Of a stretch of DNA of 64,000 bases, positions 1,055 through 39,903 are shown piece after piece. Numbering within the stretch: position 1 is the stretch's first letter; the number at the start of each line of letters is the position of its first letter. The stretch lies in assembly GCA_963714095.1 (NCBI GenBank), contig OY970230.1, positions 388,740 to 452,739 on the forward strand. Direction: 5' to 3'. The position numbers and the translations under genes are program-made. The notes beneath the pieces are model-generated. The model made no database searches. It was given only the letters and a program-made list of their open reading frames with translations, and was not told where the DNA came from. This stretch comes from Candidatus Gottesmanbacteria bacterium (lineage in GTDB: Bacteria > Patescibacteriota > Microgenomatia > UBA10105 > UBA927).

Positions 1055-1071
1055 TATAGTACAATAGGTAC

Positions 1072-3304: not shown

Positions 3305-3350
3305 ACTGTTGATTCTACCACGTCCGAACCGTATACTTAAATATATATCC

Positions 3351-5369: not shown

Positions 5370-7172
5370 TTATTTTTGTTTTGAAAATTTACCCACAGTC
5401 GGATGCGCCACCTTCTCAAAATCTTTTTCTTTCATGCGGACTGATTTGGTATGCAAACCAGCATTAAATGCTATTTCATCATTATCTCTCATCGCCTCGT
5501 CCACATAGAGCGGAATACTAAAAATGTTGCCGAAAGGAGGCACGGCCCCGATTGGCACCCCCGTAATATTTTTTACTTCATCCGGTGACGCCATCCTGAG
5601 GTCGCGGATATCGAAAGCATTTTTAAACATTTTTGTATCTACTTTGAGATCAGCAGGAAGTGTCAGCATAACCGGTTTTTCGTCTGCAAACATCACCAGG
5701 GCCTTTGCCCCTTCATGGAGCGGCGTGTTGCGGATTTTCGCCGCCTCTTCCGATGTCTTCACCGGCTCGTGTTCATACGATTCAAAAATACACGAATTCT
5801 TTTTCAATAGAGCAGTAATCTGAGCAAATACTTCATCTCCCGTTATAGATTTGGTAACCTGCGAAAGTCTTTCATCAATCCGTTCCATATCTCTTGGGAA
5901 TATGCAGGCTTCGCGGATGTTGGGAAGCTGTAAAATCTGCATGGTTATCCGTTCCGCGCCGAACGCAAATCCCCCTTCCGGCGGCACCCCGTATTTAAAC
6001 GCTTCGAGAAACATGCTGATTTTGGCCGGATCCATGTTCCATTCTCTCACGTGACCCATTAGTTGATCAAAATCATTGATTCTCCGCCCGCCGGATAACC
6101 ATTCGATACCGCGGCACAGTAAATCCATTCCTTCGTTATATTCCGGATTTTCAGGGTTGGGGTACACATAAAACGGTTTCTTTTTTGTCGGATATCCGTA
6201 TACAAAGACAAAATCGCTCCCCGTTTCCTCTTTTATAATTTCCGAAAGTTCCCGCTCGTCTTCCGGGTTAAGATCTTTCTGGCCGCGCACATCACGATTC
6301 TTTTTTTCAAATATTTTTTGTTGTGCCTCCTGGAGGCTTATCGTAGGCGTCTTCTCTGTCATTTTCGGAAGCATTGCCGCAAATAACGCTAACTCCTTTT
6401 TACAATCTTTTGCAACAGAACGAAGAATATGGCGTACGACTGACTCTGCCATATCGCGTACATCCTTCCAGGAATCAATAAAACACATTTCCGCGTCCAG
6501 CGACACGACTTCCGTAAGATGCCTGGTCGTCACGGACGGTTCTGCGCGGAAAATTTTATTCACCGAAAATACGCGTTCAAATGCGCTCATGACAATTTGC
6601 TTATACAGCTGAGGACTTTGGGATAAGTACGCTTTATGACCGAAATAGTCTACTTCAAACACGTCTGCTCCCCCTTCGGCGACTGCCGGAACAATTGACG
6701 GAGCCTGAAATTCTATAAAGTCCTGCGATTTCAAATACTGCCGGAACGCATCAATGACAACTGCCTGAATCCGGAAAATCGCCTGCACTTTCGGGTGCCG
6801 CAGTGTCAGCGCCCGGTGGTCAAGTAATGTCGGGAGTTCCAAATTAAGCTCCTCTCCCCCCATATCAAACGGAAGTGGCGCGGCGCGGGCCAGAATTCTC
6901 ACCTCTTTTGCTTCCACTTCAATTGTACCCGTGGCTATTTTAGGATTCACCATAGTCTCGGGCCGAAGTTTAACCAACCCCACAATTTCTATGGCATATT
7001 CCGGCCGGACATCAGCAAGGGCCTTTGTTGAGATTATTTGCACAATACCGGTTCTATCCCGCAGATCCAAAAACATAATCTTCCCGTGATCCCTTCTGCT
7101 ATTGACCCATCCTTGAAGTTTTATTTCTTTACCGATGTGGTTAACTGTATCGCTGCTTAATATCCTGTTCAT
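5370..7172 (-). CDS. aspS: Archaeal/eukaryotic-type aspartyl-tRNA synthetase fused to a C-terminal YbaK/ProX-like aminoacyl-tRNA deacylase domain
   Basis: OB-fold GWVNSRRDHGKIMFLDLRDRTG, QSPQLYKQ, motif 3 GFAFGAERITMQIL and the FPRD end. A linker follows, then a domain matching E. coli YbaK (IFESYEHEP, GAKALVMF, GVPIGAVPPFG). The start is set at the internal Met MNRIL. Confidence 0.85.
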   Translation of the reverse strand: MNRILSSDTVNHIGKEIKLQGWVNSRRDHGKIMFLDLRDRTGIVQIISTKALADVRPEYAIEIVGLVKLRPETMVNPKIATGTIEVEAKEVRILARAAPLPFDMGGEELNLELPTLLDHRALTLRHPKVQAIFRIQAVVIDAFRQYLKSQDFIEFQAPSIVPAVAEGGADVFEVDYFGHKAYLSQSPQLYKQIVMSAFERVFSVNKIFRAEPSVTTRHLTEVVSLDAEMCFIDSWKDVRDMAESVVRHILRSVAKDCKKELALFAAMLPKMTEKTPTISLQEAQQKIFEKKNRDVRGQKDLNPEDERELSEIIKEETGSDFVFVYGYPTKKKPFYVYPNPENPEYNEGMDLLCRGIEWLSGGRRINDFDQLMGHVREWNMDPAKISMFLEAFKYGVPPEGGFAFGAERITMQILQLPNIREACIFPRDMERIDERLSQVTKSITGDEVFAQITALLKKNSCIFESYEHEPVKTSEEAAKIRNTPLHEGAKALVMFADEKPVMLTLPADLKVDTKMFKNAFDIRDLRMASPDEVKNITGVPIGAVPPFGNIFSIPLYVDEAMRDNDEIAFNAGLHTKSVRMKEKDFEKVAHPTVGKFSKQK

Positions 7173-7178
7173 GCACTC

Positions 7179-7207
7179 ATTGTACTTGCCTAAACGCCTA
7201 TTGACAA
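7179..7207 (-). promoter_or_regulatory. Sigma70-like promoter (TTGTCA-17-TACAAT) ending 6 nt before the AspRS ATG (leaderless)
   Basis: On the minus strand the sequence reads cTTGTCAat aggcgtttaggcaag TACAAT gagtgc ATG. Confidence 0.5.
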
Positions 7208-7344
7208 GATGGAGTCTTATTGGTAAACTCTCTTTTGTATGTTTCAAACGCGCCAAATCAAATGTATTCGAGTTATTACCCTCCATCTTATTGGGGGAAG
7301 GTCGCGTGGTAGATAAATAAAAAGAAACTTTCAAAACCAAGCGA

Positions 7345-7369
7345 CCTCCCAAATATAGGGAGGTTTTTT
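7345..7369 (+). terminator. Rho-independent terminator-like hairpin (CCTCCC-aaatata-GGGAGG + T6). The 3' arm is a perfect SD for a 6-codon mini-ORF at 7370
   Basis: cctcccaaatatagggaggttttttATGagtaaatactatgtgTAA. Confidence 0.55.
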
Positions 7370-7382
7370 ATGAGTAAATACT

Positions 7383-7748
7383 ATGTGTAATGTAGAATCA
7401 GCATATAAAAGACTCACAGGATTGAATCCTCGAAAAGATATTGAACCTCCGTTGCAGGGTGCAGCGCTCGTAAAATCGCTAAAGCAATTACGAAATCCAA
7501 TACCATCAGACGGGGAAATCTTTACAAGGAATACAATAGCACAATATGAAATACTCGAAACTGGAAACGCTTCAGGTGAACAATTTATGCTGGTAGGACG
7601 CCGATTTGAAGACGGTAGATTAGAAGCAACTTTTGTTTTTGGACACAGACTGCAACCTAACACGGTACTTGAAAACATAGATCTAATAGAAAAAGATCGC
7701 TGGGTACCATATACAGAAGAAAACAATAATAGCTTTAGTAGCTTCTAA
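7383..7748 (+). CDS. Hypothetical protein (121 aa)
   Basis: Only ORF evidence; no recognisable motifs. Confidence 0.4.
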   Translation: MCNVESAYKRLTGLNPRKDIEPPLQGAALVKSLKQLRNPIPSDGEIFTRNTIAQYEILETGNASGEQFMLVGRRFEDGRLEATFVFGHRLQPNTVLENIDLIEKDRWVPYTEENNNSFSSF

Positions 7749-7749: not shown

Positions 7750-9348
7750 TTATGGAATTTGAATATCTTTAATTTTTAATTGCAATTTTTTACTGCCATT
7801 CCAGACGTTCATGTCGATGGTATAGGCTATATCAATCACAGTGCCGTTCTTCAGTTTGGGAGACAAATTGCCCATCCCGAAAGCGATCGCGTCTATAGAA
7901 GACAGCCTCAATTTGAGGTGTTTGCCGTCTGCGCCGACCAACCTGGTCTCCGAAACGGTAACACCGTTTGATGCAAATACCGGCTCGGGGCTGCCGAAAC
8001 CAAAGGGTTCAAATTCCCGAAGTTTTTGCCACAATTCGCCCGTCACTGAAGTAATCGGAAGCTCCGTGTCAATTCTCAGTTCTCGGGTTAACAGTTCATC
8101 TGTCAGTTTTTTATCTGCAATTTTTTCCAATCGCATCTGTAACTCGGCGATATTTTTTGTTTCAACCGTAAAACCTGCCGCCATCGGGTGGCCGCCGACA
8201 TCAACCAGAAGGTCGCTGCAGCTTTTTATTGCCTCCACAATATTAAATCCCGTGATAGATCGCGCCGATCCTTTTGACACCGCTTCCCCGCGGGAAATGA
8301 CGATTGCCGGACGGTAGTATTCTTCGACTAACTTCCCGGCCACCAGACCGATAACCCCGGGATTATATGTTTCATGGGTTACGAATAATAATTTCGGCAA
8401 TCCCTCTTTTGAATGTTCTTTCACTATATTTTTCGCATGAAGTGATGTATCAATCGTCAACTGTTGGCGCTCTTTGTTGGTTAACCCGAGCGTCCGAGCC
8501 AAAACGACTGCCTTATCTTCCCTGTGTGTACACAACAGACGAAGTGCATCCATCGCATGAACGAGTCTGCCCATCGCGTTAAGTCTCGGGGCCAATACGT
8601 GAGAAATATCATACGGAGTAAGCTCACCCGCTACGACTCCGGCGTCACGCATCAAAGCCAGCAGCCCCACCCGCTTTGTTTTATTGAGCTCCAGCAGTCC
8701 GAATTTTACGATCGAACGGTTCGCGCCTGTAAGAGGCACGAGATCCGCAATGGTTCCGATTGCGGCAAGAGCAATATCGGGTGAACCAATCTCTTTTGAT
8801 ACAAACCAAGATACCCCTGCTCCGCAGAGCGCTGTCGTATGGACAATAGTACAATTCGGAAGTTTGTCAGGTTTTACATGGTGATCAGTGACAATAACGT
8901 CAATCCCCAATGATTTTGCATATTCAACGAATTTATACGCGGTAATTCCGTGGTCAACCGTAATAATGAGTGATGGATCATATTGCTGCCGCACCGCATC
9001 TATACCTTTAATAGATAACCCATACCCCTCCTCTACTCTATGGGGAATGTAGGGCATAACATTCCCCGCAATCGCGTGTATCGTCTCCCACATAATGGCC
9101 CCCGCAGTTATCCCGTCCGCGTCATAATCCGCATACACGACGATAGACTCTTTATTTTTTACGGCTTTACGAATTCTTGCAACGGCTTGTTTCAATGCGG
9201 TCTGATTTATACCCACGTCTTTTGACGTAAATTCCGAAGGGTCTTTTGGATGAAGAAAGTTCCCGCTATCCGTGATGTCTCTGTTTTTTAAAAGAACCGC
9301 AATAATATCGTCACTTGGTTTATGTAAAATTTTCCACTTCTTCCCCAT
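7750..9348 (-). CDS. recJ: Single-stranded-DNA-specific exonuclease RecJ
   Basis: DHH motifs (DVIVTDHH) and DHHA1 (GGHPMAAG). 532 aa. Confidence 0.9.
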   Translation of the reverse strand: MGKKWKILHKPSDDIIAVLLKNRDITDSGNFLHPKDPSEFTSKDVGINQTALKQAVARIRKAVKNKESIVVYADYDADGITAGAIMWETIHAIAGNVMPYIPHRVEEGYGLSIKGIDAVRQQYDPSLIITVDHGITAYKFVEYAKSLGIDVIVTDHHVKPDKLPNCTIVHTTALCGAGVSWFVSKEIGSPDIALAAIGTIADLVPLTGANRSIVKFGLLELNKTKRVGLLALMRDAGVVAGELTPYDISHVLAPRLNAMGRLVHAMDALRLLCTHREDKAVVLARTLGLTNKERQQLTIDTSLHAKNIVKEHSKEGLPKLLFVTHETYNPGVIGLVAGKLVEEYYRPAIVISRGEAVSKGSARSITGFNIVEAIKSCSDLLVDVGGHPMAAGFTVETKNIAELQMRLEKIADKKLTDELLTRELRIDTELPITSVTGELWQKLREFEPFGFGSPEPVFASNGVTVSETRLVGADGKHLKLRLSSIDAIAFGMGNLSPKLKNGTVIDIAYTIDMNVWNGSKKLQLKIKDIQIP

Positions 9349-9366
9349 ACACGCTATAATACCAGT

Positions 9367-10698
9367 ATGATTGCATTACCTCAATCAGCTCAAAACATTA
9401 TAGATACCTTTCACAAGGCCGGCTATGAAATTTATGCAGTCGGAGGGTCTGTGCGGGATATTCTTATGGACCGGCCGACACGCGGATGGGACTTTACGAC
9501 GAACGCCACACCGGAAGAAACTCTTACATTATTCCCGGATAGTTTTTATGATAACCAATTCGGTACGGTAGGAATAAAAATCTCGGACGATATTTATGAA
9601 GTGACAACGTACCGAAGCGAAAAAGAATACAAAGATCACCGCCATCCGGATAAAATTCAATGGGGCAAAACGCTTGAAGAGGATCTTTCGCGGCGGGATT
9701 TTACCATTAACGCAATCGCCTACGACGGGAAAACCTTCATGGATCCGTACCACGGGCACGCAGATCTCAAAAATAAAATCATCCGCACAGTCGGAGACGC
9801 GAACGAAAGAATTGAAGAAGACTCTCTACGGATGATGCGCGCAGTCCGTATTGCATCAGAGCTTGGGTTCATGATTGAACCCGAAACACTTGCGGCAATG
9901 AAAACAAACGCCCCTCTCATCAGCGATATTTCTGCAGAACGAATTCATGATGAATTACTCCGGATACTTGCTTCCCCGTTTGCCGCAGACGGAATTTTAC
10001 TTCTTAAACAAACAGGGTTACTGAAAATTATTATTCCGGAACTCGACAGTGCATTCGCTATCGGGCAAAAAAGCCCCAGCCGCCACCACATCTATGATGT
10101 GGGCACCCATAGCGTCATGGCACTGAAAAACTGCCCGACTAAAGATCCGGTCGTTCGATTGGCAACACTCCTTCATGATATCGGAAAAGTACCGACGTAT
10201 AAGGTGGATGAAAAAGGCATCATCACGTTTTATAACCATGAAATGGTCAGTACAAAACTAACAAAACATATTCTTGCGCGGCTTAAATTCTCACGGAAAG
10301 ACACGGAAAAAATACTCACGCTCATCCGCTGGCACCAGTTTACGGTTGACGAACGGCAGACTGACAGTGCGCTTCGTAGATTTATCCGGCATGTGGGAAA
10401 AGAAAATCTTTCGGATATGCTGGCACTTCGGACCGGCGACCGTTTAGGAGGTGGCGCCGCGGAAACCTCGTGGCGCATGGAACTCTTTAAAAAACGGCTT
10501 GATGAAGTCCAAAAACAACCCTTCACCATCGCGGATTTAAAAATCAACGGCTTTGACATCATGAAAGCCTTAAATTGTAAACCCGGCCCGATCATAGGCA
10601 AAGTGTTAAATGACCTCTTTTCCAAAGTCGAGTCCGGAAAACTCCAAAACGAACGGGAAATCCTGCTCAAAGAACTAGAAGAACTAAAAAGGAATTAA
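9367..10698 (+). CDS. cca: CCA-adding tRNA nucleotidyltransferase with HD domain
   Basis: GGSVRD nucleotidyltransferase head and an HD domain (HHIYDVGTH...LLHDIGK). Confidence 0.85.
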   Translation: MIALPQSAQNIIDTFHKAGYEIYAVGGSVRDILMDRPTRGWDFTTNATPEETLTLFPDSFYDNQFGTVGIKISDDIYEVTTYRSEKEYKDHRHPDKIQWGKTLEEDLSRRDFTINAIAYDGKTFMDPYHGHADLKNKIIRTVGDANERIEEDSLRMMRAVRIASELGFMIEPETLAAMKTNAPLISDISAERIHDELLRILASPFAADGILLLKQTGLLKIIIPELDSAFAIGQKSPSRHHIYDVGTHSVMALKNCPTKDPVVRLATLLHDIGKVPTYKVDEKGIITFYNHEMVSTKLTKHILARLKFSRKDTEKILTLIRWHQFTVDERQTDSALRRFIRHVGKENLSDMLALRTGDRLGGGAAETSWRMELFKKRLDEVQKQPFTIADLKINGFDIMKALNCKPGPIIGKVLNDLFSKVESGKLQNEREILLKELEELKRN

Positions 10699-15125: not shown

Positions 15126-15208
15126 TGGTATTCATTATACTACGATTCTTATTACTTTTATGTCAATAAGATAGTCAGCAGACGTATGTAGAGTTGACAA
15201 GCGTGCCT

Positions 15209-17093: not shown

Positions 17094-17152
17094 AAACGTA
17101 TATTAAGCGTTATCAGATCAAAAATGAAGAGTTTGGCGGAAACACGCAAAAA

Positions 17153-20430: not shown

Positions 20431-20450
20431 AGTGGTATTCTACCAGAAGA

Positions 20451-21984: not shown

Positions 21985-22022
21985 ATTCTTAGTGTATCAC
22001 ATTCTTTTATTTTGTCACGTAA

Positions 22023-27236: not shown

Positions 27237-27313
27237 TGGTCGGGGTGGGCAGACTTGAACTGCCAACCGCTCGCACCCCATGCGAGTGCGCTAGCCAATT
27301 GCGCCACACCCCG
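27237..27313 (-). tRNA. tRNA-Pro (anticodon GGG), CCA encoded
   Basis: CGGGGTGTGGCGCAATTGGCTAGCGCACTCGCATGGGGTGCGAGCGGTTGGCAGTTCAAGTCTGCCCACCCCGACCA folds as a cloverleaf with the anticodon loop AUGGGGU. Confidence 0.85.
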
Positions 27314-28441: not shown

Positions 28442-28945
28442 TTACCGTTTCGGTGATTGCTTTCTCGCTCTCGCTTTTCCAGCGAAACCAGCTTTCCTTC
28501 GCTGCTTGGCTCTGGGGTCTCGCATCAAAAATCCGCGTTTCTTTAATATCGGACGGAATTTTTCCAGATCTACTTTAATGAGAGCTCTGGATAACGCATG
28601 AATGGTTGCTCCCAGTTGCCCAGTCAGTCCCCCACCGGTGGTCGTCACGGATACGGCAAACCTGCTCATGGTATTGGTCGTGCGGAACGGTTCCTGATAT
28701 CGTTTCTTAAATACTTCGCCGGGGAAAAATTTTTCAACGGGCAAACCGTTCACGATCATCGCGCCTTTTTCCACGGACTTGCCGCTAATTGTTATTGCCG
28801 CATCTTTGACAACGTAGAGACGCGCTCTCGCGCTTGCGGTTTTCCTGCGACCCACTGCTTCGTAATACGAAACCTTGTCTTCTTTCACCGCGTCTTTCGC
28901 CGTGTCTTTCTTAACCTCTTTTTCTTTAATCGGTTTGTCTGCCAT
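28442..28945 (-). CDS. rpsI: 30S ribosomal protein S9 (with a K/E-rich N-terminal extension)
   Basis: GGGLTGQLGA...KQRRKAGFAGKARARKQSPKR C-terminus. Confidence 0.9.
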   Translation of the reverse strand: MADKPIKEKEVKKDTAKDAVKEDKVSYYEAVGRRKTASARARLYVVKDAAITISGKSVEKGAMIVNGLPVEKFFPGEVFKKRYQEPFRTTNTMSRFAVSVTTTGGGLTGQLGATIHALSRALIKVDLEKFRPILKKRGFLMRDPRAKQRRKAGFAGKARARKQSPKR

Positions 28946-28947
28946 AA

Positions 28948-29367
28948 TTATTTTTTAATAAATTTATCTTTATACGGATGATCCGCTTCCGGGTATATAA
29001 AGAGTCGGGTTATGAGTCTATCACGGAGTTTATTTTTGGGCAACATACCCCATACTGCATGGCGGATGGGTTCCGTGGGCTTTTCCTGACGCACCTGCCA
29101 CAACGCTTTTTGTTTGAGCCCACCTGGGTAACCGGAAAAAGTACTATACAACTTTTCCTTATCTTTTTTTCCTGTAACGACAAAATGTGCGGCATTGATA
29201 ACAACGACATTATCACCGCAATCTAGAGAGCGGACGTAATTCTTTTTGCTTTTGCCGATGAGTTTCTGTGCAATCTCGGTTGCTACACGACCCAGCACTT
29301 TGCCTTTCACGTCAACAAGCTGCCAGTTGTGCTCAAGATCTGATATTTTGGTTGCCGGTGTGTTCAT
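28948..29367 (-). CDS. rplM: 50S ribosomal protein L13
   Basis: WQLVDVKGKVLGRVAT... Confidence 0.9.
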   Translation of the reverse strand: MNTPATKISDLEHNWQLVDVKGKVLGRVATEIAQKLIGKSKKNYVRSLDCGDNVVVINAAHFVVTGKKDKEKLYSTFSGYPGGLKQKALWQVRQEKPTEPIRHAVWGMLPKNKLRDRLITRLFIYPEADHPYKDKFIKK

Positions 29368-29368
29368 A

Positions 29369-29782
29369 TTACTTTTTTACTGTAACTTTTTTCACAACTT
29401 TTGGTTTCATGACTTCAACTTTTACTTTTTCGTCAACGAGTTGAAACAATACCTCTTCCGTCACATCTCCAATACGTTTGCCCAAATGGATAATTCTCGT
29501 AAATCCGCTCGTCCGATTCCCAAACCGGGTTTTCGCGTCAGCGAGTAACGCCTTCTCAATATCTTTACTCGCGAGCACTTTCTCAATTTGATTGACGCTT
29601 GCCTGTGATCCGTCCTTTGCCTTCGTAATAAGTTTCTCTATCATTGGCTGGGCAGCTTTCGCTTTTGGCAAGCTGGTTTTAATCACTCCGTGGATAAACA
29701 AATCCCGCGCAAGCCCCTGCAAAAGCCGTTTGCGTTCGTTTTTCGTCCTAGAAAATTTTCGACCGAATACAGAATGTCTCAT
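29369..29782 (-). CDS. rplQ: 50S ribosomal protein L17
   Basis: MRHSVFGRKFSRTKNERKRLL... Confidence 0.9.
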   Translation of the reverse strand: MRHSVFGRKFSRTKNERKRLLQGLARDLFIHGVIKTSLPKAKAAQPMIEKLITKAKDGSQASVNQIEKVLASKDIEKALLADAKTRFGNRTSGFTRIIHLGKRIGDVTEEVLFQLVDEKVKVEVMKPKVVKKVTVKK

Positions 29783-29791
29783 ATAGTACTA

Positions 29792-30712
29792 TTAAACAGC
29801 AAGAGCTACTCCCTTTTCCCGGAGCTTCTCTTCGACGACCGCCAAAGATTTCGTTCCGAGGTTCTTTATCTTCATAAGTTCAGTTTTTGGTGTCCCCAGA
29901 AGCTGACCAATCGTCTCAATACCGCCGTTTGCCAGGGCATTCACGATACGGGTTGGGATATCCAACTCTTCAATACGCATTTTTAAGACTTCATCGGATA
30001 CCGTCGGTGTCACTGCAACTACGTCTGTCGCCCCTACAACTTTCGGTTCATATACTTGTACAAAATACGAAACCAGAATTTTTGCTGCAGATTTTAATGC
30101 TTCAAGAGCGCTCACGGTTCCATCTGTCCACACTTCCATGACAAGCCGGTCTAAATTGGTCATGCGGCCGACACGGGTAGCTTCAACACGATAGTTCACC
30201 CTCGTCACCGGTGAATACAGTGCGTCCACAGACATCACGCCGACTTCATCATGATGTTTTTCATCAGCTGATATATATCCCATACCGCGTTCTGCCGTAC
30301 ATGTTACTTCAAGACTCGCCTTTTTATCAGCAAGGTGTGCAAGAACTAACTCTTTATTCACAATGGTTACCCCTGCCGGAACTTCAATATCTGCGGCTGT
30401 CACTTCTCCAGGTCCGGTTTTTGAAATAGTCAAATTCACCGAGGCATCTCCCTCAACCGTCAGACGGACTTTCTTAAGATTCATCAAAAACTCTACAACG
30501 TCTTCTTTCATGCCGGGAAGCGTGGAAAACTGATGTTTAACGCCTTCAATTTTTGCCGTCACGATGGCACTGCCCGGAAGCGAAGCCAAAAGAACACGTC
30601 GGAGACTGTTACCTAGCGTCTGACCATACCCCTGATCCAGAGGTTCCAGAATAAACTTTCCGTATCCGGGTTTATCAATTGACGTTTCTATTTGAAAATT
30701 AGGGTCTACCAT
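29792..30712 (-). CDS. rpoA: DNA-directed RNA polymerase subunit alpha
   Basis: N-terminal dimerisation domain and C-terminal domain (IEELDIPTRIVNAL). Confidence 0.95.
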   Translation of the reverse strand: MVDPNFQIETSIDKPGYGKFILEPLDQGYGQTLGNSLRRVLLASLPGSAIVTAKIEGVKHQFSTLPGMKEDVVEFLMNLKKVRLTVEGDASVNLTISKTGPGEVTAADIEVPAGVTIVNKELVLAHLADKKASLEVTCTAERGMGYISADEKHHDEVGVMSVDALYSPVTRVNYRVEATRVGRMTNLDRLVMEVWTDGTVSALEALKSAAKILVSYFVQVYEPKVVGATDVVAVTPTVSDEVLKMRIEELDIPTRIVNALANGGIETIGQLLGTPKTELMKIKNLGTKSLAVVEEKLREKGVALAV

Positions 30713-30785
30713 ATATTTTTATTAATTTAGTGGTGTGTGTTTATAGCTTCCGGATATAAACCCCCGCCGCCAAATTTATCCTTTC

Positions 30786-31406
30786 TTAACGTGAATAATG
30801 TTCTACAATTAACTGCTCACTGATGTCTTCACCAACGTCGGCACGCATTGGCAACCGGACAACCTTGACTACCGGGCCTTTGCGCTCCAACCATTCCGGC
30901 ACTTTTACCGTTTTATCTTCCAATAACCGCTTGACCGCCGGAATCTCCAATGATTTTGACTTCATTGTGATGACCTGATCCTTATCAACGAGAAATGACG
31001 GGATCGTTACTTTCGCGCCATCTACTGTCACATGGCCGTGGTTGACGAATTGCCGCGCGGATGCGCGGGTCGGAGCGATACTCGCCCGATACAATACATT
31101 GTCCAGGCGCCGTTCCATAAATTCCAATAATTTTTCTCCGGTATTGCCTTTCCATTGTTTAGCGCGTTCAAATGTTTTTCTGAATTGCCGCTCCAAAACG
31201 CCGTACATCCGTTTTACTTTTTGTTTCTCACGGAGTTGCTGGCCGAATCCTGATACTTTCCGTTTACCTTTGGCCCCGTGCTGCCCGGGAGGGATATTCG
31301 CACGCCTGAGGTATGCCGCATGGGATTTACTCCCTACGGTTTTGAGACCGAGGTCTATTCCCTCGCGTCGTGACAATCTGTTTTTCGGTCCTGTATATCG
31401 TGCCAT
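30786..31406 (-). CDS. rpsD: 30S ribosomal protein S4
   Basis: MARYTGPKNRLSRREG... Confidence 0.95.
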   Translation of the reverse strand: MARYTGPKNRLSRREGIDLGLKTVGSKSHAAYLRRANIPPGQHGAKGKRKVSGFGQQLREKQKVKRMYGVLERQFRKTFERAKQWKGNTGEKLLEFMERRLDNVLYRASIAPTRASARQFVNHGHVTVDGAKVTIPSFLVDKDQVITMKSKSLEIPAVKRLLEDKTVKVPEWLERKGPVVKVVRLPMRADVGEDISEQLIVEHYSR

Positions 31407-31412
31407 AATCTT

Positions 31413-31784
31413 TTACACCCTTCTTTTCTTCTTTGGCCGTACGCCGTTATGCGGCATCGGGGTAACATCTGCAATAAGCGAAATAATAAGCCCCACTGCT
31501 TTTAAACCCCGCAGCGCTGCATCCCGCCCCGCTCCCGGTCCTTTAATATATACTTCCACCTCTCTAAGTCCCTGATCCTGTGCCTTACGGGCGACCGCCT
31601 CTACCGCGGTTGTTGCGGCATACGGAGTGGATTTACGTGCTCCTTTAAACCCCGCCATACCGGATGATCCCCAGCACAACGTATTGCCCTGTTCGTCGGT
31701 AATAGTCACTAATGTGTTGTTAAAGGTCGCTGTGATAAACACTTTTCCTTTTTCAACAACACGATGTACTTTTTTTACTGCCAT
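31413..31784 (-). CDS. rpsK: 30S ribosomal protein S11
   Basis: ...[18 protein letters not shown]... Confidence 0.95.
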
Positions 31785-31787
31785 ATA

Positions 31788-32228
31788 TTATTTTTTCGCC
31801 TCAGCGGCTGACGCCGCAGGGGCTACCGCCGCAGTTGATGCGTCTGTCTTTATACGGTCATCCTTCTTCATAGCACCAATCGTCATACGCTTCCCGCGTT
31901 TCGTACGTGCATTACTCCTTGTCCGCTGCCCGCGAACCGGCAATTTTTTAACATGCCGACCTCCTCTATAGCTGCGGATTTCGATAAGCCGTTTAATATT
32001 ATCGGAAACTTCCTTGCGCAAGTCTCCCTCAACGCTATATCCTTTTTCCAGTATTTTTGCGATTTTATTGACTTCCTCGTCCGTCAATGTCTTCACCCGT
32101 CTTGCGCCGTCCATCTGGGCTTCTTTCAACACCTTCACGACATTACTCCTGCCCACCCCGTAGAGGTAGGTCAATGCAATATCCAGCCGTTTATCGTTTG
32201 GTAAGTCTACTCCTGCAATACGTGCCAT
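31788..32228 (-). CDS. rpsM: 30S ribosomal protein S13
   Basis: [14 protein letters not shown]... Confidence 0.95.
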
Positions 32229-32231
32229 AAA

Positions 32232-32345
32232 TTATCCCTGTCTTTGTTTATGTTTCGGGTTTTCGCAAATGATGTACACCTTTCCATTCCGGCGTACAAC
32301 TTTACATTTATCACAAATTGTTTTTACGCTTGCTCGTACTTTCAT
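32232..32345 (-). CDS. rpmJ: 50S ribosomal protein L36 (37 aa, below the track threshold)
   Basis: [37 protein letters not shown]. Confidence 0.9.
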
Positions 32346-32355
32346 ATGTTTTTTA

Positions 32356-32574
32356 TTATTTAACCCGATACGTAATTCTGCCCTTTGTTGAATCGTACGG
32401 TGTTACTTCTACTTTCACTTTGTCTCCGGGCATGATACGGATAAAATTCAACCGCATCTTCCCCGATAAATGACACAAAATAATATGCCCGTTTGCTAAC
32501 TTCACCCGAAACAATGTGTTGGGCAGACATTCCGCTACCACTCCTTCTACTTCAATATTTCCCTGATGGGCCAT
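32356..32574 (-). CDS. infA: Translation initiation factor IF-1
   Basis: S1-like OB fold, [21 protein letters not shown]... Confidence 0.95.
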
Positions 32575-32640
32575 AATTACAAAAACAACAAAAATATCCC
32601 TCTTTGAATCGAGGTTTCTGTCAATGCATGCAATTGTACC

Positions 32641-33414
32641 TCAAATACCTCCCGCGGTCAACACTACGGGGCCACCAGACGTAATTGCCAAAGAATGCTC
32701 GAAAACCGACGTTAGGGATCTATCCCTAGTCGCCAGCGTCCAACCATCAGTATTCTCATACACTATTTCACCCCGCCCCATGGCATAAATAGGCTCGATT
32801 GCTATAGTCATCCCTTCAGTAAGCGGCAATGTATTCTCAATGGCACCCCGCAGGTAATTGGGAATCTGCGGCTCTTCATGAAGATCACGGCCCACGCCGT
32901 GCCCGACCAAAGATTTCACGATACTGTACCCCGCGCCTTCAATCGTCTCCTGAACAACCTGTGAAATGTTACCCACGCGGTTGCCGATGATCGCGGCTTT
33001 AATCCCCCTGTCGAGAGCCAGCTTGCCAATCTCAAGAAATTTTTTCGTTGACTCTGGAATTTCGTATTTTTTCGATACAACGACTTTTGTTCCGGCCGTA
33101 TCCGTATGGAATCCTTTGTAAATAAGACCTATGTCAATCGTCAAAACATCTCCATCCTTTAATACGTACTGCGTCGGAATTCCGTGAACCACGACTTCAT
33201 TGACATTGAGACACGTGGCCCAGTGATATCCGGGGACAGTTGCAAATGACGCGGTTGCACCCGCTCTTTCGATTAATTCATTTGCACGCTTCTCTATATC
33301 CATAAGGACGACTCCAGGTTGAGAAAATGTAAGTAGATCGTTGAGAATTACCCCGAGTTTTTTGCCGCCCTCGCGCATAACGGCAATTTCTGTAGGAGTT
33401 TTAATGTGGATCAT
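32641..33414 (-). CDS. map: Methionine aminopeptidase (type I)
   Basis: Pita-bread fold metal ligands (D..D..H..E..E pattern) and typical MAP sequence. Confidence 0.9.
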   Translation of the reverse strand: MIHIKTPTEIAVMREGGKKLGVILNDLLTFSQPGVVLMDIEKRANELIERAGATASFATVPGYHWATCLNVNEVVVHGIPTQYVLKDGDVLTIDIGLIYKGFHTDTAGTKVVVSKKYEIPESTKKFLEIGKLALDRGIKAAIIGNRVGNISQVVQETIEGAGYSIVKSLVGHGVGRDLHEEPQIPNYLRGAIENTLPLTEGMTIAIEPIYAMGRGEIVYENTDGWTLATRDRSLTSVFEHSLAITSGGPVVLTAGGI

Positions 33415-33965
33415 ACAAGTTTTTTGTAAAGCAGCTCCAACTGAGCACGAAATGCTTTTTCATCACTGTCGTTCACTAAAAGATAATCTGCAATAGCAAT
33501 CGGGCCGCCCTTATTGAGATTTTCTAATTCCGCTATATCGCGGCTGCTAGCCTCAGCCTGTGTCAGCGGACGGACCTTCCGTTGACTCAAACGCTTATAC
33601 CGAATCCTCGGAGGAGCATAGATACATAACAGCTGAATCTCAGGAAACTTTCGTTTGAGGAAATTATATTCTTCCCAGGAATATAATCCGTCCAAAACGA
33701 TAACGTTGCTTGTTTTGGCTGCTTCCAGAATCCTGGGCTCTATTTTAATGGCCATCGCCGCCATTCCCAGATCTTTCCGTAAGGATTCACGGACAAACCG
33801 CTCGTTTTTTTCGTTACGCGGGAGGCCCAATTCCTTGAGGCTAATATCCGTCTGATCGCCAAAACGAAGAATTGGAATTCCTTTTTCCCGAAAAAAATCC
33901 GCGGCTACCGTCTTTCCGGCTCCGGGCATTCCGACAATAGCAATAAGTTTACGCTGTGGTTCCAT
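33411..33965 (-). CDS. P-loop nucleotide kinase, UPF0200-like (archaeal-type predicted nucleotide kinase)
   Basis: IAIVGMPGAGKT..ILRFGD...VIVLDGLYSWEEYNFLKRKFP..LLCIYAPPRIRYKRLSQR resembles the archaeal UPF0200 family. This is a recollection. Start set at MEPQRKL. Confidence 0.45.
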   Translation of the reverse strand: MEPQRKLIAIVGMPGAGKTVAADFFREKGIPILRFGDQTDISLKELGLPRNEKNERFVRESLRKDLGMAAMAIKIEPRILEAAKTSNVIVLDGLYSWEEYNFLKRKFPEIQLLCIYAPPRIRYKRLSQRKVRPLTQAEASSRDIAELENLNKGGPIAIADYLLVNDSDEKAFRAQLELLYKKLV

Positions 33966-34536
33966 TAATTTGTTGCATGATGGCCGCGTGTACTTCTTCA
34001 ATCGTCTGATTCGCATTAATTTCGACCAGCACGCCCTTGGCGCGGTAAAAGTCCAACACATCTTTTTCCCCTTCTTTGTACATCGCAAGCCGTGTCTTGA
34101 TACGCTCCGGCGTATCCGCTGTTTCTACACTCCCGGGATGTAATGGCCGAGCCCGTTTAGCCAACCGGCTAATAGACTCTTCTTCGCTTAAATTAAGATA
34201 TATGACTTTTTCTACTTTATAGCCGTATTTATCAATCTTGTCATCTAAAAATTTTGCCTGCTCCACATTTCTGGGGAACCCATCCATAATCCAACCGCCT
34301 TTTGCATCTTCCTCCTTGAGGCGCCACTTCCACAATACAAACATTTCACTGTCGGCAACATACTTCCCTTCTTCCAGTGCCTGACGGCAGACCTCGCCGA
34401 TAATTCCCTTGTCATTTGCCGCCGCGTCACGCACTAAATCGCCGGAGGTAAGAATAGGTAAATGCAACGTATCCGCCAGTAACTTTGCCTGCGTTCCTTT
34501 ACCTGATCCTTCCGGTCCGTAAAAAACAATATGCAT
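33949..34536 (-). CDS. adk: Adenylate kinase (short form)
   Basis: MHIVFYGPEGSGKGTQAKLLA... Confidence 0.9.
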   Translation of the reverse strand: MHIVFYGPEGSGKGTQAKLLADTLHLPILTSGDLVRDAAANDKGIIGEVCRQALEEGKYVADSEMFVLWKWRLKEEDAKGGWIMDGFPRNVEQAKFLDDKIDKYGYKVEKVIYLNLSEEESISRLAKRARPLHPGSVETADTPERIKTRLAMYKEGEKDVLDFYRAKGVLVEINANQTIEEVHAAIMQQINGTTA

Positions 34537-34544
34537 GATCCTCC

Positions 34545-35834
34545 TTATTCTTTTAAATACCCTTCGTAATTTCTCATGACAAGTTGAGCTTCCAATGCTT
34601 TAAATGTCTCCAAAACTACCGATACTACGATGAGGACGCCTGTGCCTCCAATAAGTAATGTCGAGACCCCCGAAATCTGCCGCGCAATAGACGGCAATAT
34701 TGCAATAATCCCCAAAAATAACGCACCTGCAAGCGTAATGCGGGTCAAAATATAATTGAGGTAACCGGCAGTTGCAGTCCCCGGCCGAATACCCGGAATA
34801 AAGCCGCCGTACTTCTGGATTTCTTCCGCAATCTTTTTTGGATTAAACGTAATGGCGGTATAAAAATAGGTAAATCCGATAACGAGGAGAAAATAGATAA
34901 CGTTATACCAGACGCCGTTCGGATTAAAAACATTCGTAAGAAAAACACCCAAACCGGCTAAGGCAGGGCTTTTCACCTGCTTTAAAAATCCGCCGAGTAG
35001 TGACGGCAAAAGTACCATGGAAACGGCAAATATGATAGGGATAACACCTGCCTGATTGACCCGAAGCGGCAAATACGATACATTGCCGCCGTACACTTTA
35101 TTGCCGCGGATTCGGCGGGCATAATGCACCGTAATACGCCTGACTGCTTCGTTCACAAATACGGTCGCCGCAATGACAAGTATCGCCAGTATCCCAAAAA
35201 GAATAATATTCGTAATCCCTTCCGCTGTTGCAGTAGTCGCGACCTGTCCGAATGCAACGGGCAGCCGGCCGACTATTCCGGCAAAAATAAGAAGTGATAT
35301 ACCATTTCCTATTCCATACTCTGTAATCATTTCACCGAACCACATGGCAAGAATTGTCCCCGCCGTCATCGTCACCACCATAGTAATAAGTGCCAAAGGG
35401 TCCAATGTCGCGATGATCCCCTGATTCCGAAGAAGAGCAATCATTCCGATTGATTGCACGGCAGCAAGCGGAACAGTGATAAGGCGCGTGTACTGATTAA
35501 TTTTCTCCCTGCCGTATTCCCCTTCTTTGGATAATTCTTCAAGCTTTGGAAATACAATCTGCAAAAGTTGCAAAATGATGGAGGCGTTGATGTATGGGTT
35601 GAGTCCTAATGCCATGACGGAAAAATTTACGAGCGTCCCGCCGGAAAAAATATCCAATAGTCCCAAAAATTGATTTGATGCAAACAGCGCGGCGAGTTTA
35701 CGAGTATCGACCGCAGGAATCGGGATATGGGCAAACAAACGGAAGACGACAAAAATAAACGCAGTAAGCAAAATTTTCCGTCTCAAGTCCGGTGCTTTCC
35801 AGCTATTGATAAGAGGCGACAAAAATTTATTCAT
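34545..35834 (-). CDS. secY: Preprotein translocase subunit SecY
   Basis: 10 transmembrane helices with typical SecY sequence. Start set at MNKFL. Confidence 0.95.
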
Positions 35835-36273
35835 GTGGCGAGAGAACTTCTCCCCCGGCTTTTTCGATTGCACTCGCTGCGCTCTTTGAACACGGTACCG
35901 CAACTTCAAGTTTTACTGTTACTTTTCCGTTTCCTAAAACTTTCACCCGGGCAGTTGCATTGTCTATCATATGATATTTTTTGAGCGTTTCCAATGTAAC
36001 AGATGTACCCGCAGGTATCGTATTCAATTTCTCAACAGACAGTGGATATGCTTTTCCTAACTGAGACCCGTTGCGACCCTTCCCGCGAAGAAGCGGTAAC
36101 CGTTTAATGAGCGGCAACTGTCCGCCTTCAAATCCTATGTGAATGCTGTCACGGGATTTTTGTCCTTTGGTTCCCCGTCCTGAAGTTTTAACTTTTCCGG
36201 ACCCATGACCGCGCCCAAGGCGCTTTTTCCCCCGCTGTACAATCGATATCGCGTTAAAAGATATATTTGTCAT
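35827..36273 (-). CDS. rplO: 50S ribosomal protein L15
   Basis: ...[22 protein letters not shown]... Confidence 0.9.
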
Positions 36274-36731
36274 ATGATTCTCTTTAATCTCAACAATTTA
36301 AGGGCTTCCATCGTGGCATAGACGTTCGATGCCTGATTTTTGCTTCCTAAAATTTTTGATACGATGTCACGGATACCAGCCGCCTCAACGACTGCGCGCA
36401 CCGCTCCCCCTGCTATAACACCAGTTCCTGGAGGCGCGGGTTTAAGCATAATTTTTGCCGCTCCCCGCTTGACACGGATTTCATGCGGTATTGTAGTTCC
36501 CTTCATAGCAACAGTGAACATATGCTTCTGGGCATAACTGACAGCCTTGCGGACTGCCGATGATACATCCGGCGCTCCGCCCAACCCTACACCAACTTTT
36601 CCTTTTTTGTCGCCGACGACGGCAAGCACGGAAAATCCGATTTTATTTCCACCTTTTGTCTTTTTTGAAACGCGGTTAACCTGGACTATTTTTTCTTCGA
36701 GTCCGCTGGTATTTCTTGGTTCACCTCTCAT
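36270..36731 (-). CDS. rpsE: 30S ribosomal protein S5
   Basis: ...[27 protein letters not shown]... No L30 gene follows; rplO overlaps the rpsE 5' end. Confidence 0.95.
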
Positions 36732-37057
36732 ATCTTTAATCCTCCTTCACGTGCGCCGTCTGCTACCTCTTTCACCGTACCGTGAAACCGGTACCCGCTC
36801 CTGTCAAATACGACCGTTTTAATACCTTTTGCGATTGCTAATTTCGCAATTTCCAATCCTAATGCCTTACCTGTTGCTTTATTTTTACCACCCATGCGCT
36901 TGGCAAGGAGTGTTACACCTTTCGTGTCATCAATTATCTGCACTAACACAGCTGTGTTCGAGCGGAATACTGACAACCTCGGCCGTGCTGCAGTCCCGGT
37001 AATTTTTGCACGAACCCGTGCTTTTCGTTTTTGTCTCAAATCAAAACTTTGTTTCAT
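36728..37057 (-). CDS. rplR: 50S ribosomal protein L18
   Basis: ...[10 protein letters not shown]... Confidence 0.9.
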
Positions 37058-37058
37058 A

Positions 37059-37619
37059 TTATTTCGCTCCTGGAGCTCCTCCTACAGCCTTTGCGGCCTT
37101 GCCTGCTTTTTTACGGATATGTTCTCCCTGATATTTTATTCCTTTACCTTTATATGGCTCAGGCTTTTTTATTTCACGAATTTTGGCTGCAACCTGCCCG
37201 ACTAATTGTTTGTCTGTTCCGGATACGATAATTTTTCCTTCCTGTGCCGCAAACTGAATGCCTGCAGGCGGAATAACAGTCACAGGATGTGAAAATCCTA
37301 AATTCAACGTTAAATTTACACCAGTAACCGCCGCCCGATATCCTACACCGGAAAGCTCCAAGACTCGGGTCCAGCCTTTGGTAACACCGGTAACAAGATT
37401 GTTCAGGTTTGCCCGAACGTATCCATGAAGCGCCCGGGTCGGCTTATCATCACCGCTACGCCTGACTTCGATTTTTCCGTCTGCCACCTTTACGCTCACA
37501 CGCGGGGGCACACGCATTCTGAGTTCACCATTCGGCCCTTTGACCACCACGAGATCATCCGACAGGGTAACCGTCGCTATACTCGGAATACTGATGATTG
37601 CATTGCCTATTCGTGACAT
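37059..37619 (-). CDS. rplF: 50S ribosomal protein L6
   Basis: [12 protein letters not shown]... Confidence 0.9.
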
Positions 37620-37623
37620 ATGT

Positions 37624-38016
37624 TTACCAAATTTTACATAACAATTCTCCGCCGATACCTTTCTTTTTCGCATCGCGGCCAGTCATAATTCCCAAAGGCG
37701 TCGAGAGTATTGCAATACCCATACCTCCCACCACCTGCGGAATAGTATTCTTATTCACGTACCACCGGAGACCCGGCTTGCTCACGCGTTTCACTCCTGT
37801 AATGACTGACTCGTTGTTCGCATATTTGATTCCGACACGCAGGTTTGCCTTCGGATCCGTTCCGACTTTAACGACGGACGATACGTATCCCTCATCCAAA
37901 AGGATTTTGCCGAGCGCCATCTTGAGTTTGGAATAGGGTAATTCGATCACCGAATTGTGCGCCGCAGCTGCGTTCTTTATTTGTATAAGCATGTCTCCGA
38001 TTGGATCATTTACCAT
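37624..38016 (-). CDS. rpsH: 30S ribosomal protein S8
   Basis: MVNDPIGDMLIQIKNA... Confidence 0.95.
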   Translation of the reverse strand: MVNDPIGDMLIQIKNAAAAHNSVIELPYSKLKMALGKILLDEGYVSSVVKVGTDPKANLRVGIKYANNESVITGVKRVSKPGLRWYVNKNTIPQVVGGMGIAILSTPLGIMTGRDAKKKGIGGELLCKIW

Positions 38017-38028
38017 ATATTCTCTCCT

Positions 38029-38214
38029 TTACCAGGACGCTTTTACTACGCCCGGCAACTCTCCTTTATGTGCTAATTTTCTAAAACAGAGCCTGCAGAT
38101 ACCGAACTTCCGCATGTATGCACGGGACCGGCCGCACATCGCGCAGCGGTTATGCTGCCGAACGCGATATTTTTGTTTATGTTCAAACTTAACGATATCT
38201 GATGTTTTAGCCAT
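38029..38214 (-). CDS. rpsN: 30S ribosomal protein S14, type Z (zinc-binding, 61 aa)
   Basis: [22 protein letters not shown]. Confidence 0.9.
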
Positions 38215-38758
38215 GTTGCTCCTTTTCAAACGGCATACCGAACAATGTCAAAAGTTTTTTGCTATCCGTGTCATTGCCCGCCGTTGTCACAAACGTCACT
38301 TCAAATCCCCGGGGCCGGTCAATCATGCTGTAATCAAGCTCAGGAAAAATACTCTGTTCGTGAACTCCCAACGTATAATTTCCTTTGCCGTCAAACCCCG
38401 TGGATGGGACGCCGTGAAAATCACGCACGCGCGGGAGTGCCAGCCGGATAAACTTTGTCAGAAAATCATACATTCTTGTGCCCCGCAGTGTTGCCCGCAG
38501 TCCCACCGCATCTCCGGCGCGCAGTTTAAAGGTTGAAATTGCGCGTTTTGCCCTGGTGATCTGGGGTTTTTGCCCAGCAATCACCGCAAGCTGCTTCACC
38601 ATACTATCCAATACTTTTTTATCCGCGAGCGCCTCACGGCCAACGCCGCAGTTTATAACGATTTTGACAAGCCGCGGAATTGCCATGCGGTTGACGATCC
38701 CCGCCTTTTGAAACTCAGGTACTATTTGTTTTATGTAGATATCGTGTAATTCGTGCAT
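38207..38758 (-). CDS. rplE: 50S ribosomal protein L5
   Basis: ...[15 protein letters not shown]... Confidence 0.9.
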
Positions 38759-38762
38759 ACAT

Positions 38763-39068
38763 TTAGATAACTTGATCGCATTTTCTGCAGATCCGTTCTT
38801 TATTATTTTTGACAATCCTGTATCCCAACCGCGTTTGTTTCCCGCATTTAGGACATAGAACGGCGATTTTCCCCATTGAAATAGGATTCACGACTTCTAT
38901 GATGCCTCCGGGGTGCTGCTCATCCCGTTTTTTTTCATGTTTCTTCACGATGTTAACGCCCGGCACGAGAACTTTGGATTCCTTGGGGAATACTTTTTCA
39001 ACCTTCCCCTTTTTTCCTTTGTCTTTTCCTGTCGTCACAATAATCTGATCACCTTTTTTAATTTTCAT
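38763..39068 (-). CDS. rplX: 50S ribosomal protein L24 with a C-terminal CxxC..CxxC zinc-ribbon extension
   Basis: KOW domain MKIKKGDQIIVTTGKDKGKKGKV... plus a C-terminal CPKCGK...CRKCD. Confidence 0.9.
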   Translation of the reverse strand: MKIKKGDQIIVTTGKDKGKKGKVEKVFPKESKVLVPGVNIVKKHEKKRDEQHPGGIIEVVNPISMGKIAVLCPKCGKQTRLGYRIVKNNKERICRKCDQVI

Positions 39069-39093
39069 ATAAATCTCCGATTTAACCTCCGGT

Positions 39094-39468
39094 TTAATAG
39101 ACCTCCGGCGCCATGCTGATAATTTTGTCAAATCCTTTTTCCTTCAGTTCCCGGGCAACCGGGCCAAAAACGCGTGTACCGCGCGGATTTTTGTCAACGT
39201 CGTTATCAATGAGTACTCCCGCATTATCATCGAAACGGATGTATGACCCGTCAGCCCGATGATATTCCTTGTGTGTACGGACGATAACCACTTTCACGAG
39301 TTCGTCATCTTTCACCATACCCTGCGGGTCGACCTTACGGACGACACACTGCACGATATCACCCAAGCGCGCGAAATTCTGTTTCGATGCGCCGTAAATA
39401 TGGATAATCGACATCAACTGAACTCCTGAATTATCCGCGGCATGTATTTTTGTTTTTCGTTGAACCAT
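39094..39468 (-). CDS. rplN: 50S ribosomal protein L14
   Basis: MVQRKTKIHAADNSGV... Confidence 0.95.
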   Translation of the reverse strand: MVQRKTKIHAADNSGVQLMSIIHIYGASKQNFARLGDIVQCVVRKVDPQGMVKDDELVKVVIVRTHKEYHRADGSYIRFDDNAGVLIDNDVDKNPRGTRVFGPVARELKEKGFDKIISMAPEVY

Positions 39469-39469
39469 A

Positions 39470-39902: not shown

Positions 39903-39903
39903 A

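Follow-up and report, generated by a model that had tools for sequence, protein, structure and literature searches.

Predicted leaderless transcription from start-codon-proximal promoters in a 64-kb genome region of Candidatus Gottesmanbacteria

We analyzed how genes begin in a 64-kb stretch of contig OY970230.1 from Candidatus Gottesmanbacteria (hereafter the window), a member of the Patescibacteria or Candidate Phyla Radiation (CPR), and found that many first genes of transcription units carry a -10-like hexamer, TAnnnT, directly before their ATG and no Shine-Dalgarno (SD) sequence. We consider it likely that these genes undergo leaderless transcription of the kind described in Actinobacteria and Deinococcus, termed group C in the GeneMarkS-2 classification, with start sites predicted from the DNA sequence. 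About half of the transcription units would then be expressed as mRNAs that are leaderless or carry leaders of a few nucleotides. The -10 hexamer, 6-7 bp upstream of the ATG and often with a TGn extension or, 16-18 bp upstream of it, a TTGaca-like -35 element, would direct RNA polymerase to start on or beside the A of the start codon. The transcript would contain neither a 5' untranslated region nor an SD sequence, and ribosomes would recognize its 5'-terminal AUG together with the initiator tRNA, as established in other bacteria. We infer the transcription start sites and the mode of translation from the position, enrichment, SD exclusivity and conservation of the hexamers described below.

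The window contains about 35 transcription units. Our curated list holds 71 genes, comprising 35 heads of transcription units (genes with a divergent neighbor or a gap of at least 20 nt) and 36 operon-internal genes. Of the 35 heads, 16 have a TAnnnT hexamer 5-8 nt ahead of the ATG, compared to 1 of the 36 operon-internal genes (Fisher p = 1.5e-5), the sole internal case being secD with TAACTT. When the 40 nt upstream of each head were shuffled in 2000 trials, 4.4 ± 1.9 heads carried the hexamer and the maximum was 12. The 16 starts are mutY (1054), era (1072), gltX (3304), aspS (7172), recJ (9348), cca (9367), a DUF4446 gene (15125), the gene at 17093, miaB (20430), a LytR_C gene (21984), an ABC ATPase gene (24578), the genes at 49298 and 49564, cvpA-CAP (50610), a dsbD-like gene (50637) and a 'GNAT' gene (63350), and the start codon is ATG in all of them. 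A seventeenth candidate, CATTAT, lies 7 nt before ATG 61427. A first-pass annotation of the same DNA had proposed leaderless initiation from eight sites and a comparison of the hexamer's offset with shuffled controls. All eight sites are present at the positions it gave, and within the window the comparison favors its proposal; its list lacked mutY, the DUF4446 gene, miaB, cvpA-CAP, the dsbD-like gene and those starting at 17093, 49298 and 61427. The TACACT of the LytR_C gene does not match its motif, TAnAAT.

A second test was centered on ATG triplets and made no use of gene calls, scanning all 2074 ATGs on both strands for TAnAAT at each spacer length. The arrangement TAnAAT-N6-ATG occurs seven times in the 64 kb. 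All seven of these ATGs open reading frames (ORFs) of at least 70 codons, and six of them are the first ATG of the ORF. Across all 2074 ATGs, the corresponding background is 25% opening such an ORF and 7% being its first ATG. No other spacer length of TAnAAT in the window gave anything comparable to the 6-nt peak.

The restriction of the hexamer to first genes, and not internal ones, points to a promoter rather than a ribosome-binding site. A 6-nt spacer is the canonical distance of +1 from the -10 element for the sigma-70 RNA polymerase, and in 11 of the 16 genes this canonical +1 (base seven past the hexamer) coincides with the A of the ATG. A -35 element (at least 4/6 matches at 16-18 bp) or a TGn extension accompanies 7 of the 16 hexamers, compared to 17% of all other TAnnnT hexamers in the window (p = 0.01). 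From a scan for consensus promoters and terminators we took only the co-location of its calls with start codons; by itself, the scan barely exceeds shuffles (51 vs 37.8 ± 6.3, 45 vs 31.1 and 40 vs 30.3). It independently calls full promoters ending at the hexamers of cca, recJ, aspS, the LytR_C gene and the 79-amino-acid (aa) ORF at 49564. The DUF4446 gene has a TATAAT (15134-15139, minus strand) 8 nt before ATG 15125, and the scan instead calls the adjacent alternative TTGACA-18-TAGTAT (15166-15137, minus strand), from which the leader would be no longer than 5 nt.

SD sequences are absent where the hexamer is present. Counting as an SD any duplex of -6 kcal/mol or stronger with an anti-SD taken as canonical, none of the 16 hexamer-headed genes has one, compared to 21 of the 55 other genes (p = 0.002), in line with what the first-pass annotation had remarked for its own cases. 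Taken together, the in-silico tests capable of contradicting leaderless transcription all came out in its favor, and the proposal of the first-pass annotation is supported as position-specific, confined to heads, exclusive of SD sequences and conserved, with predicted start sites.

The tightest example is the 18-bp spacer between recJ and cca, ACACGCTATAATACCAGT (9349-9366), the entirety of which is a predicted bidirectional core promoter. The recJ gene (7750-9348, minus strand, 532 aa) ends the spacer on one side with its start codon at 9346-9348 (as CAT), and cca, encoding the CCA-adding tRNA nucleotidyltransferase (9367-10698, plus strand, 443 aa), ends it on the other with its ATG at 9367-9369. 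On the plus strand, the cca -10 element TATAAT (9355-9360) is followed by a 6-nt spacer that places the predicted +1 on the A of ATG 9367. Its -35-like element TTTCCA (9331-9336) lies within recJ codons 5-6, which read K-W on the other strand, and the combination TTTCCA-18-TATAAT scores 10/12. On the minus strand, recJ has an extended -10 element, TGgTATTAT (9356-9364, with TATTAT at 9361-9356), 7 nt before ATG 9348, and a -35-like TTGAGG (9379-9384) located 17 bp from TATTAT and within cca codons 5-6. The two -10 hexamers share 5 bp, and A2 of each pairs with T6 of the other. Polymerase would bind in either orientation but not in both at once, and each -35-like element falls within the opening codons of the gene across the spacer. 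As transcription in both directions is predicted to begin at a start codon, the promoter core takes up the whole intergenic region.

The recJ/cca arrangement is kept in relatives. A RecJ search of reference genomes returned eight syntenic loci in metagenome-assembled genomes, whose record titles read 'Patescibacteria group bacterium' in two cases and 'uncultured Gammaproteobacteria' in six. The spacer is 18 bp long in L001, L002 and L005, and 22 bp long in L007. In an alignment of these four loci with the window, the core TATTATA is invariant and the pattern CAT-A...TG-TATTATA-C..GTATG is constant in all five sequences, while the bases between hexamer and start codon differ and the RecJ proteins are 58-73% identical. 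The cca arrangement TATAAT-N6-ATG is kept in L001, L002, L005 and L006, and the recJ -35 element is TTGAGG or TTGAGC at the identical 17-bp spacing in L001, L002 and L005. L003 and L004 have a different palindrome, TATGATATCATA, in which TATCAT still stands 7 nt before the recJ ATG. L003 also contains TCAAAAC tandem repeats at the recJ N-terminus (around 5990-6020) that are absent from the window.

The window contains five divergent gene pairs, all of them tight, with spacers of 17, 18, 24, 26 and 46 bp. The 17-bp mutY/era spacer (1055-1071) is built like recJ/cca: the era -10 element TACAAT (1060-1065, plus strand) lies 6 nt before ATG 1072, the mutY -10 element TATTGT (1066-1061, minus strand) lies 6 nt before ATG 1054, and the opposed hexamers again pair position 2 with position 6. 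The distance between the A's of the two start codons is 18 bp at mutY/era and 19 bp at recJ/cca. In the 26-bp spacer between cvpA-CAP and the dsbD-like gene (50611-50636), TATACT (50623-50618, minus strand) lies 7 nt before ATG 50610 and TATTGT (50626-50631, plus strand) lies 5 nt before ATG 50637. In the 24-bp spacer between a PD-(D/E)XK nuclease gene and the 'GNAT' gene (63326-63349), TATAAT (63338-63343, plus strand) lies 6 nt before ATG 63350 of the 'GNAT' ORF, which runs off the end of the window; the name came from the first-pass annotation, and the ORF has only a sub-threshold FemAB_like match. The PD-(D/E)XK nuclease gene has TATTAT/TATACT on the minus strand 10-12 nt before ATG 63325, and its predicted leader is about 5-7 nt long.

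The palindromic -10 element serving both strands at recJ/cca, as the first-pass annotation described it, matches a class of bidirectional promoters already in the literature, and we assign the recJ/cca spacer, by its sequence and predicted start sites, to the described '18-bp class'. 'Extreme compaction' is a fair description of 18 bp, and the arrangement itself is a known promoter type rather than a new one.

We extended the comparison with a MiaB search of metagenomes, which returned 80 loci, comprising 34 contigs with at least 47% identity (group A, 328 kb) and 46 more distant ones; about 330 kb of relatives were analyzed without curated gene calls. In the 34 group A contigs, 17 of the 28 ATGs that follow TAnAAT at a spacer of 6 are the first of a long ORF, as are 16 of the 36 at a spacer of 7, against a background of 4.9%. 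The 46 more distant loci show a weak peak (7 of 43 at spacer 6). The same peak in related contigs indicates that the trait belongs to the lineage and not only to the window. Spacers of 17-19 bp were found in none of the 24 divergent ORF pairs of the group A contigs, and their absence from these contigs indicates that the ultra-short spacers are specific to the close relatives L001, L002 and L005. Other relatives have separate back-to-back -10 elements, as in a 30-bp spacer in L026.

Individual genes follow the same trend. The miaB -10 element, often TGn-extended, lies 5-9 nt from the ATG in most of the relatives L009-L040 (at least 47% identity). The gltX element TGnTAGAATCAA is kept in L001, L004, L005 and L006 with spacers of 9-10 nt. 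At aspS, the -10 element lies at 6 nt from the ATG both in the window and in L005 and L006, the leaderless type, whereas in L003 and L007 a GGAGGT stands downstream of the hexamer, 3-5 nt short of the ATG; judging from these sequences, aspS orthologues switch between initiation modes. L006 also has GGATATT and GCAACCC tandem repeats in intergenic regions near gltX and downstream of hyp5369, which are absent from the window.

The remaining predicted promoters all lie on the minus strand. Extended -10 elements, in both cases TGgTAGAAT, precede gltX (3312-3320, 7 nt before ATG 3304) and miaB (20437-20445, 6 nt before ATG 20430). Two-part promoters with the hexamer 6 nt from the ATG are found at aspS (TTGTCA-17-TACAAT, 7179-7207, before ATG 7172, scoring 10/12), at the LytR_C gene (GTGACA-16-(TGa)TACACT, 21991-22018, hexamer 21991-21996, before ATG 21984) and at the 79-aa ORF (TCGACA-16-TATAAT, 49571-49598, hexamer 49571-49576, before ATG 49564, scoring 11/12). 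A 449-aa ORF has TAATAT (17100-17105) 6 nt before ATG 17093, and a 150-aa ORF has TACAAT (49306-49311) 7 nt before ATG 49298. The ABC ATPase gene has TATAAT (24590-24585) 6 nt before ATG 24578, and directly before this hexamer stands the terminator of hup, a hairpin followed by a T-run (24632-24598). The terminator abuts the hexamer, which leaves about 20 bp for a promoter and none for a leader.

Several points weigh against leaderless transcription as the explanation. Every transcription start site is placed by geometry, the sample comprises only about 35 transcription units in 64 kb, and the anti-SD is assumed to be canonical, the 3' end of the 16S rRNA lying outside the window. Nine of the 16 hexamers have no recognizable -35 or TGn element. 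The 7-8-nt spacers (recJ, gltX, DUF4446, 49298 and cvpA-CAP) may mean leaders of 1-2 nt, and in relatives the -10 element can lie 9-10 nt from the ATG, as at gltX, or as far as 16-19 nt from it, as in certain orthologues of miaB and cca, so that 'leaderless' grades into 'very short leader'. The status of the 17093 gene as a head is uncertain, with an unannotated 121-aa ORF upstream of it, and for the 79-aa ORF there is, roughly 50 nt upstream, a second promoter-like site (49647-49620).

The second site at the 79-aa ORF also suits an alternative in which the true transcription starts lie further upstream, the promoters sit inside neighboring genes, and the hexamers are incidental features of AT-rich DNA, so that the mRNAs have leaders of normal length without an SD and are translated independently of it. 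Many internal genes here initiate with neither an SD nor a -10 element, which means that SD-independent internal initiation does exist in this organism, and the consensus promoter scan is weakly specific (51 vs 37.8 ± 6.3 in shuffles). However, incidental hexamers leave unexplained the sharp positional peak at 6 nt, the contrast between 16/35 heads and 1/36 internal genes, the invariance of the hexamers amid varying spacer bases, and the terminator placed right before the ABC ATPase -10 element. We regard this alternative as unlikely, although it fares best among those we weighed.

A different explanation is that TAnnnT acts in the RNA, as a non-SD ribosome-binding site or translation enhancer within leadered mRNAs, comparable to the motif of GeneMarkS-2 group B. 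In its favor, the motif is rich in A and U and lies near the start codon, overall SD use is low (about 30% of genes), and some CPR lineages have lost the anti-SD motif (PMC9297842). A translation signal would be expected at internal genes as well, yet it is found at 1/36. The -35 and TGn elements co-occur with the hexamer at the spacing of RNA polymerase, and the symmetry of the motif across the two strands of divergent pairs is what DNA recognition would predict. Strong GGAGG sequences at tuf, adk and hup argue for an intact anti-SD. On this evidence, an element acting in RNA is very improbable.

SD-led genes do coexist with the hexamer-headed ones. A GGAGG or AAGGAG precedes tuf, hup, recA, adk, the gene at 13421 and a 47-aa zinc-ribbon ORF at 15540; several ribosomal protein genes are SD-led as well. 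The first-pass annotation was right to see a mixture of leaderless and SD-led initiation, and its list of SD-led genes holds, with the correction that recA has AAGGAG and not the canonical GGAGG. Most other operon-internal genes have neither an SD nor a -10 element, and instead show an A-rich upstream sequence and a stop codon adjoining the next start, a pattern suggesting that about half of all genes rely on coupling or on initiation independent of an SD. In the ribosomal protein operons (28442-44594, minus strand), rpsI, rplM, rplQ, rpsC, rplV, rplB, rplD, rpsG, rpsL and rpoC lack both signals; 1-9 nt separate the preceding stop from their ATG, and the sequence upstream is rich in A, as in AAAAATAATT. 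A second P-loop kinase-like ORF (AAA_18/AAA_17; 33411-34088, minus strand) lies between adk and map, and its longest reading overlaps the adk 3' end by about 140 nt.

Very improbable, too, is an artefact of start-codon choice or chance, with true starts elsewhere and random hexamers in AT-rich intergenic DNA: several of the 16 genes are hypothetical with no model to fix the N-terminus (17093, 49298 and 49564) and public calls pick another aspS start (656 aa), but six starts are fixed by full-length family models, the ATG-centered test is highly significant independently of gene calls, the observed count was never reached in shuffles, and the 656-aa aspS rests on the arm of a terminator-like hairpin and adds 56 residues that the family model does not contain. 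Start codons were checked against full-length NCBIfam models, which fix those of era, gltX, aspS, recJ, cca and miaB. Era aligns over residues 1-284 with model positions 1-281; TIGR00464 position 2 aligns three residues after GltX ATG 3304; NF003483 position 3 falls on the AspRS methionine at 7172; TIGR00089 position 1 aligns with MiaB residue 2; RecJ residues 13-529 align with TIGR00644 positions 2-546; and CCA-adding enzyme residues 6-228 align with NF009814 positions 7-230. RecJ has no other in-frame start for 44 codons, and its N-terminus aligns from residue 1 in relatives.

The aspS gene illustrates how annotation may go wrong. The public call begins at TTG 7340 behind a GGAGG (window 7173-7365, minus strand; L089 4009-5599), and this GGAGG belongs to a terminator-like hairpin (7343-7365), of which it forms one arm and which can be read on either strand. 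The over-extension appears to arise because the terminator stem mimics an SD sequence. Alignments of aspS orthologues in relatives begin at the 7172 methionine or at most 2 residues from it, and homology supports ATG 7172 as the start of a 600-aa protein, the public call being 56 codons too long. The protein itself (5370-7172, minus strand) matches the non-discriminating, archaeal-type model NF003483 and has at its C-terminus a YbaK/EbsC-like Cys-tRNA(Pro) deacylase domain (residues 514-655 of the long ORF, by TIGR00011). By its domain matches, it is a synthetase fused to a trans-editing domain, and the fusion appears to be conserved, as alignments in L001-L007 reach the C-terminus. Between recJ and aspS lie about 400 bp of unannotated DNA (7331-7748) with overlapping ORFs of 131 aa (minus strand) and 121 aa (plus strand); neither ORF has a Pfam match, and public calls take the plus-strand one.

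Genes with long leaders provide the contrast to the hexamer-headed starts. The rpoB promoter is a perfect consensus, TTGACA-16-TATAAT (60316-60343, minus strand), with a leader of about 88 nt; this promoter shows that the organism uses the canonical sigma-70 consensus. The tuf promoter, TTGTCA-18-(TGg)TACAAT (45863-45892, minus strand), is followed by a leader of about 50 nt with AAGGAGG 4 nt before ATG 45806. In the rpoB promoter and leader region (60221-60343, minus strand), the leader contains a hairpin with a T-run (60291-60267) and no SD before the ATG. The fusA gene (48029-48116, minus strand) also has a strong promoter, TAGACA-17-TACAAT, and its leader contains a hairpin with T8 (48070-48047) and likewise no SD before the ATG. 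Both may be attenuator-type regulatory leaders, and neither has an Rfam match. A 224-codon ORF in an alternative frame over the fusA start (47474-48148, near a TACAAT-8-ATG) was considered and rejected, as its translation is of low complexity and the N-terminal G domain of fusA is intact. At gathering thresholds, Rfam has no match anywhere in the window, the tRNA family included, and thus offers no leader or riboswitch RNA that contradicts or explains the start regions. ARAGORN calls a tRNA-Pro (GGG anticodon) at 27237-27313 (minus strand), which has no Rfam match.

Leaderless transcription in this lineage could be part of a wider picture, which we put forward tentatively and hold, taken as a whole, to be rather doubtful. 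Heads might by default be initiated in leaderless form, and most internal genes independently of an SD, so that initiation would be largely uncoupled from the pairing of SD and anti-SD, with a possible tie to the reduced CPR ribosome (short bS1, missing uL30). Compaction might have driven divergent pairs to a physical minimum of 17-18 bp with a single symmetrical -10 element. Finally, -35 elements inside the partner's first codons might constrain protein N-termini, candidates being the conserved K-K-W of RecJ opposite the cca -35 element and the L-P-Q of the CCA-adding enzyme opposite the recJ -35 element.

If many CPR genes are leaderless, gene callers driven by SD sequences would misplace starts, as the aspS example illustrates, in a group known almost only from metagenomes and annotated automatically. 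The hexamer also gives a simple rule, readable from sequence, by which promoters and transcription units of an uncultivated phylum may be predicted. Leaderless-rich expression would extend from Actinobacteria and Deinococcus-Thermus to the CPR, with its reduced ribosome and unstudied rules of initiation. The 17-18-bp divergent pairs would be compact natural cases in which one bidirectional promoter yields two leaderless mRNAs, which would make them helpful in work on polymerase competition and in minimal synthetic designs. These implications leave current understanding standing: the mechanisms are well understood elsewhere, and what is new is their predicted presence in a phylum for which we found no such report.

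Our literature search on leaderless and SD initiation in Patescibacteria, CPR, Saccharibacteria, TM7x and Parcubacteria found no report of leaderless genes in the CPR. According to a study of CPR ribosomes, some of the Parcubacteria have lost the anti-SD motif; leaderless genes are not discussed there (PMC9297842). We came across a citation of just one CPR start-site set, for Nanosynbacter lyticus (PMID 35975994, as listed in PMC12641261).

Archaeal leaderless mRNAs (Haloferax volcanii, Sulfolobus solfataricus; group D) likewise begin at or a few nucleotides from the start codon, at a fixed distance from the promoter. The archaeal signal, however, is a TATA box and BRE at about -26, whereas the window has a -10 hexamer at -12 to -7 with -35 and TGn elements of the sigma-70 type. 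Non-SD initiation in Bacteroidota and some cyanobacteria (group B) shares with the window a low use of GGAGG-type SD sequences and A-rich sequence before many starts. The group B motif stands before internal genes as well as first ones and cannot be a promoter; in contrast, TAnnnT in the window is confined to first genes.

The closest counterparts of the divergent pairs are the bidirectional promoters described by Warman, Grainger and colleagues, in which opposed -10 elements overlap with nucleotides 2 and 6 pairing, divergent starts are most often 18 bp apart (18-19 bp in actinobacteria), and binding of one polymerase excludes the other, a competition that matters only if one direction is strongly activated (bioRxiv 10.1101/2020.01.31.928960; PMC12825309). 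As in the 18-bp class (for example, E. coli pfs/dgt), the hexamers at recJ/cca and mutY/era lie on opposite strands, offset by 1 bp, with positions 2 and 6 paired. Unlike that class, recJ/cca and mutY/era have predicted starts that coincide with start codons and both -35 elements in coding sequence.

For the hexamer-headed genes as a whole, the nearest known system is group C, a type characteristically found in Actinobacteria and Deinococcus-Thermus: the first genes of operons have a Pribnow box 6-8 nt before their start, and an estimated 25-50% of operons are leaderless (PMC6028130). Mycobacterium tuberculosis, Streptomyces coelicolor, Corynebacterium glutamicum and Deinococcus deserti resemble the window in having TAnnnT 6-8 nt before first genes, no SD at those genes, and SD-led genes alongside them; the predicted leaderless share of 16/35 heads compares with the 25-50% of operons in group C. 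The window differs in its origin, a reduced genome of the Patescibacteria/CPR with a GC content of about 45%, and in its operon-internal genes, most of which lack an SD, whereas internal genes in a typical group C genome have a ribosome-binding site.

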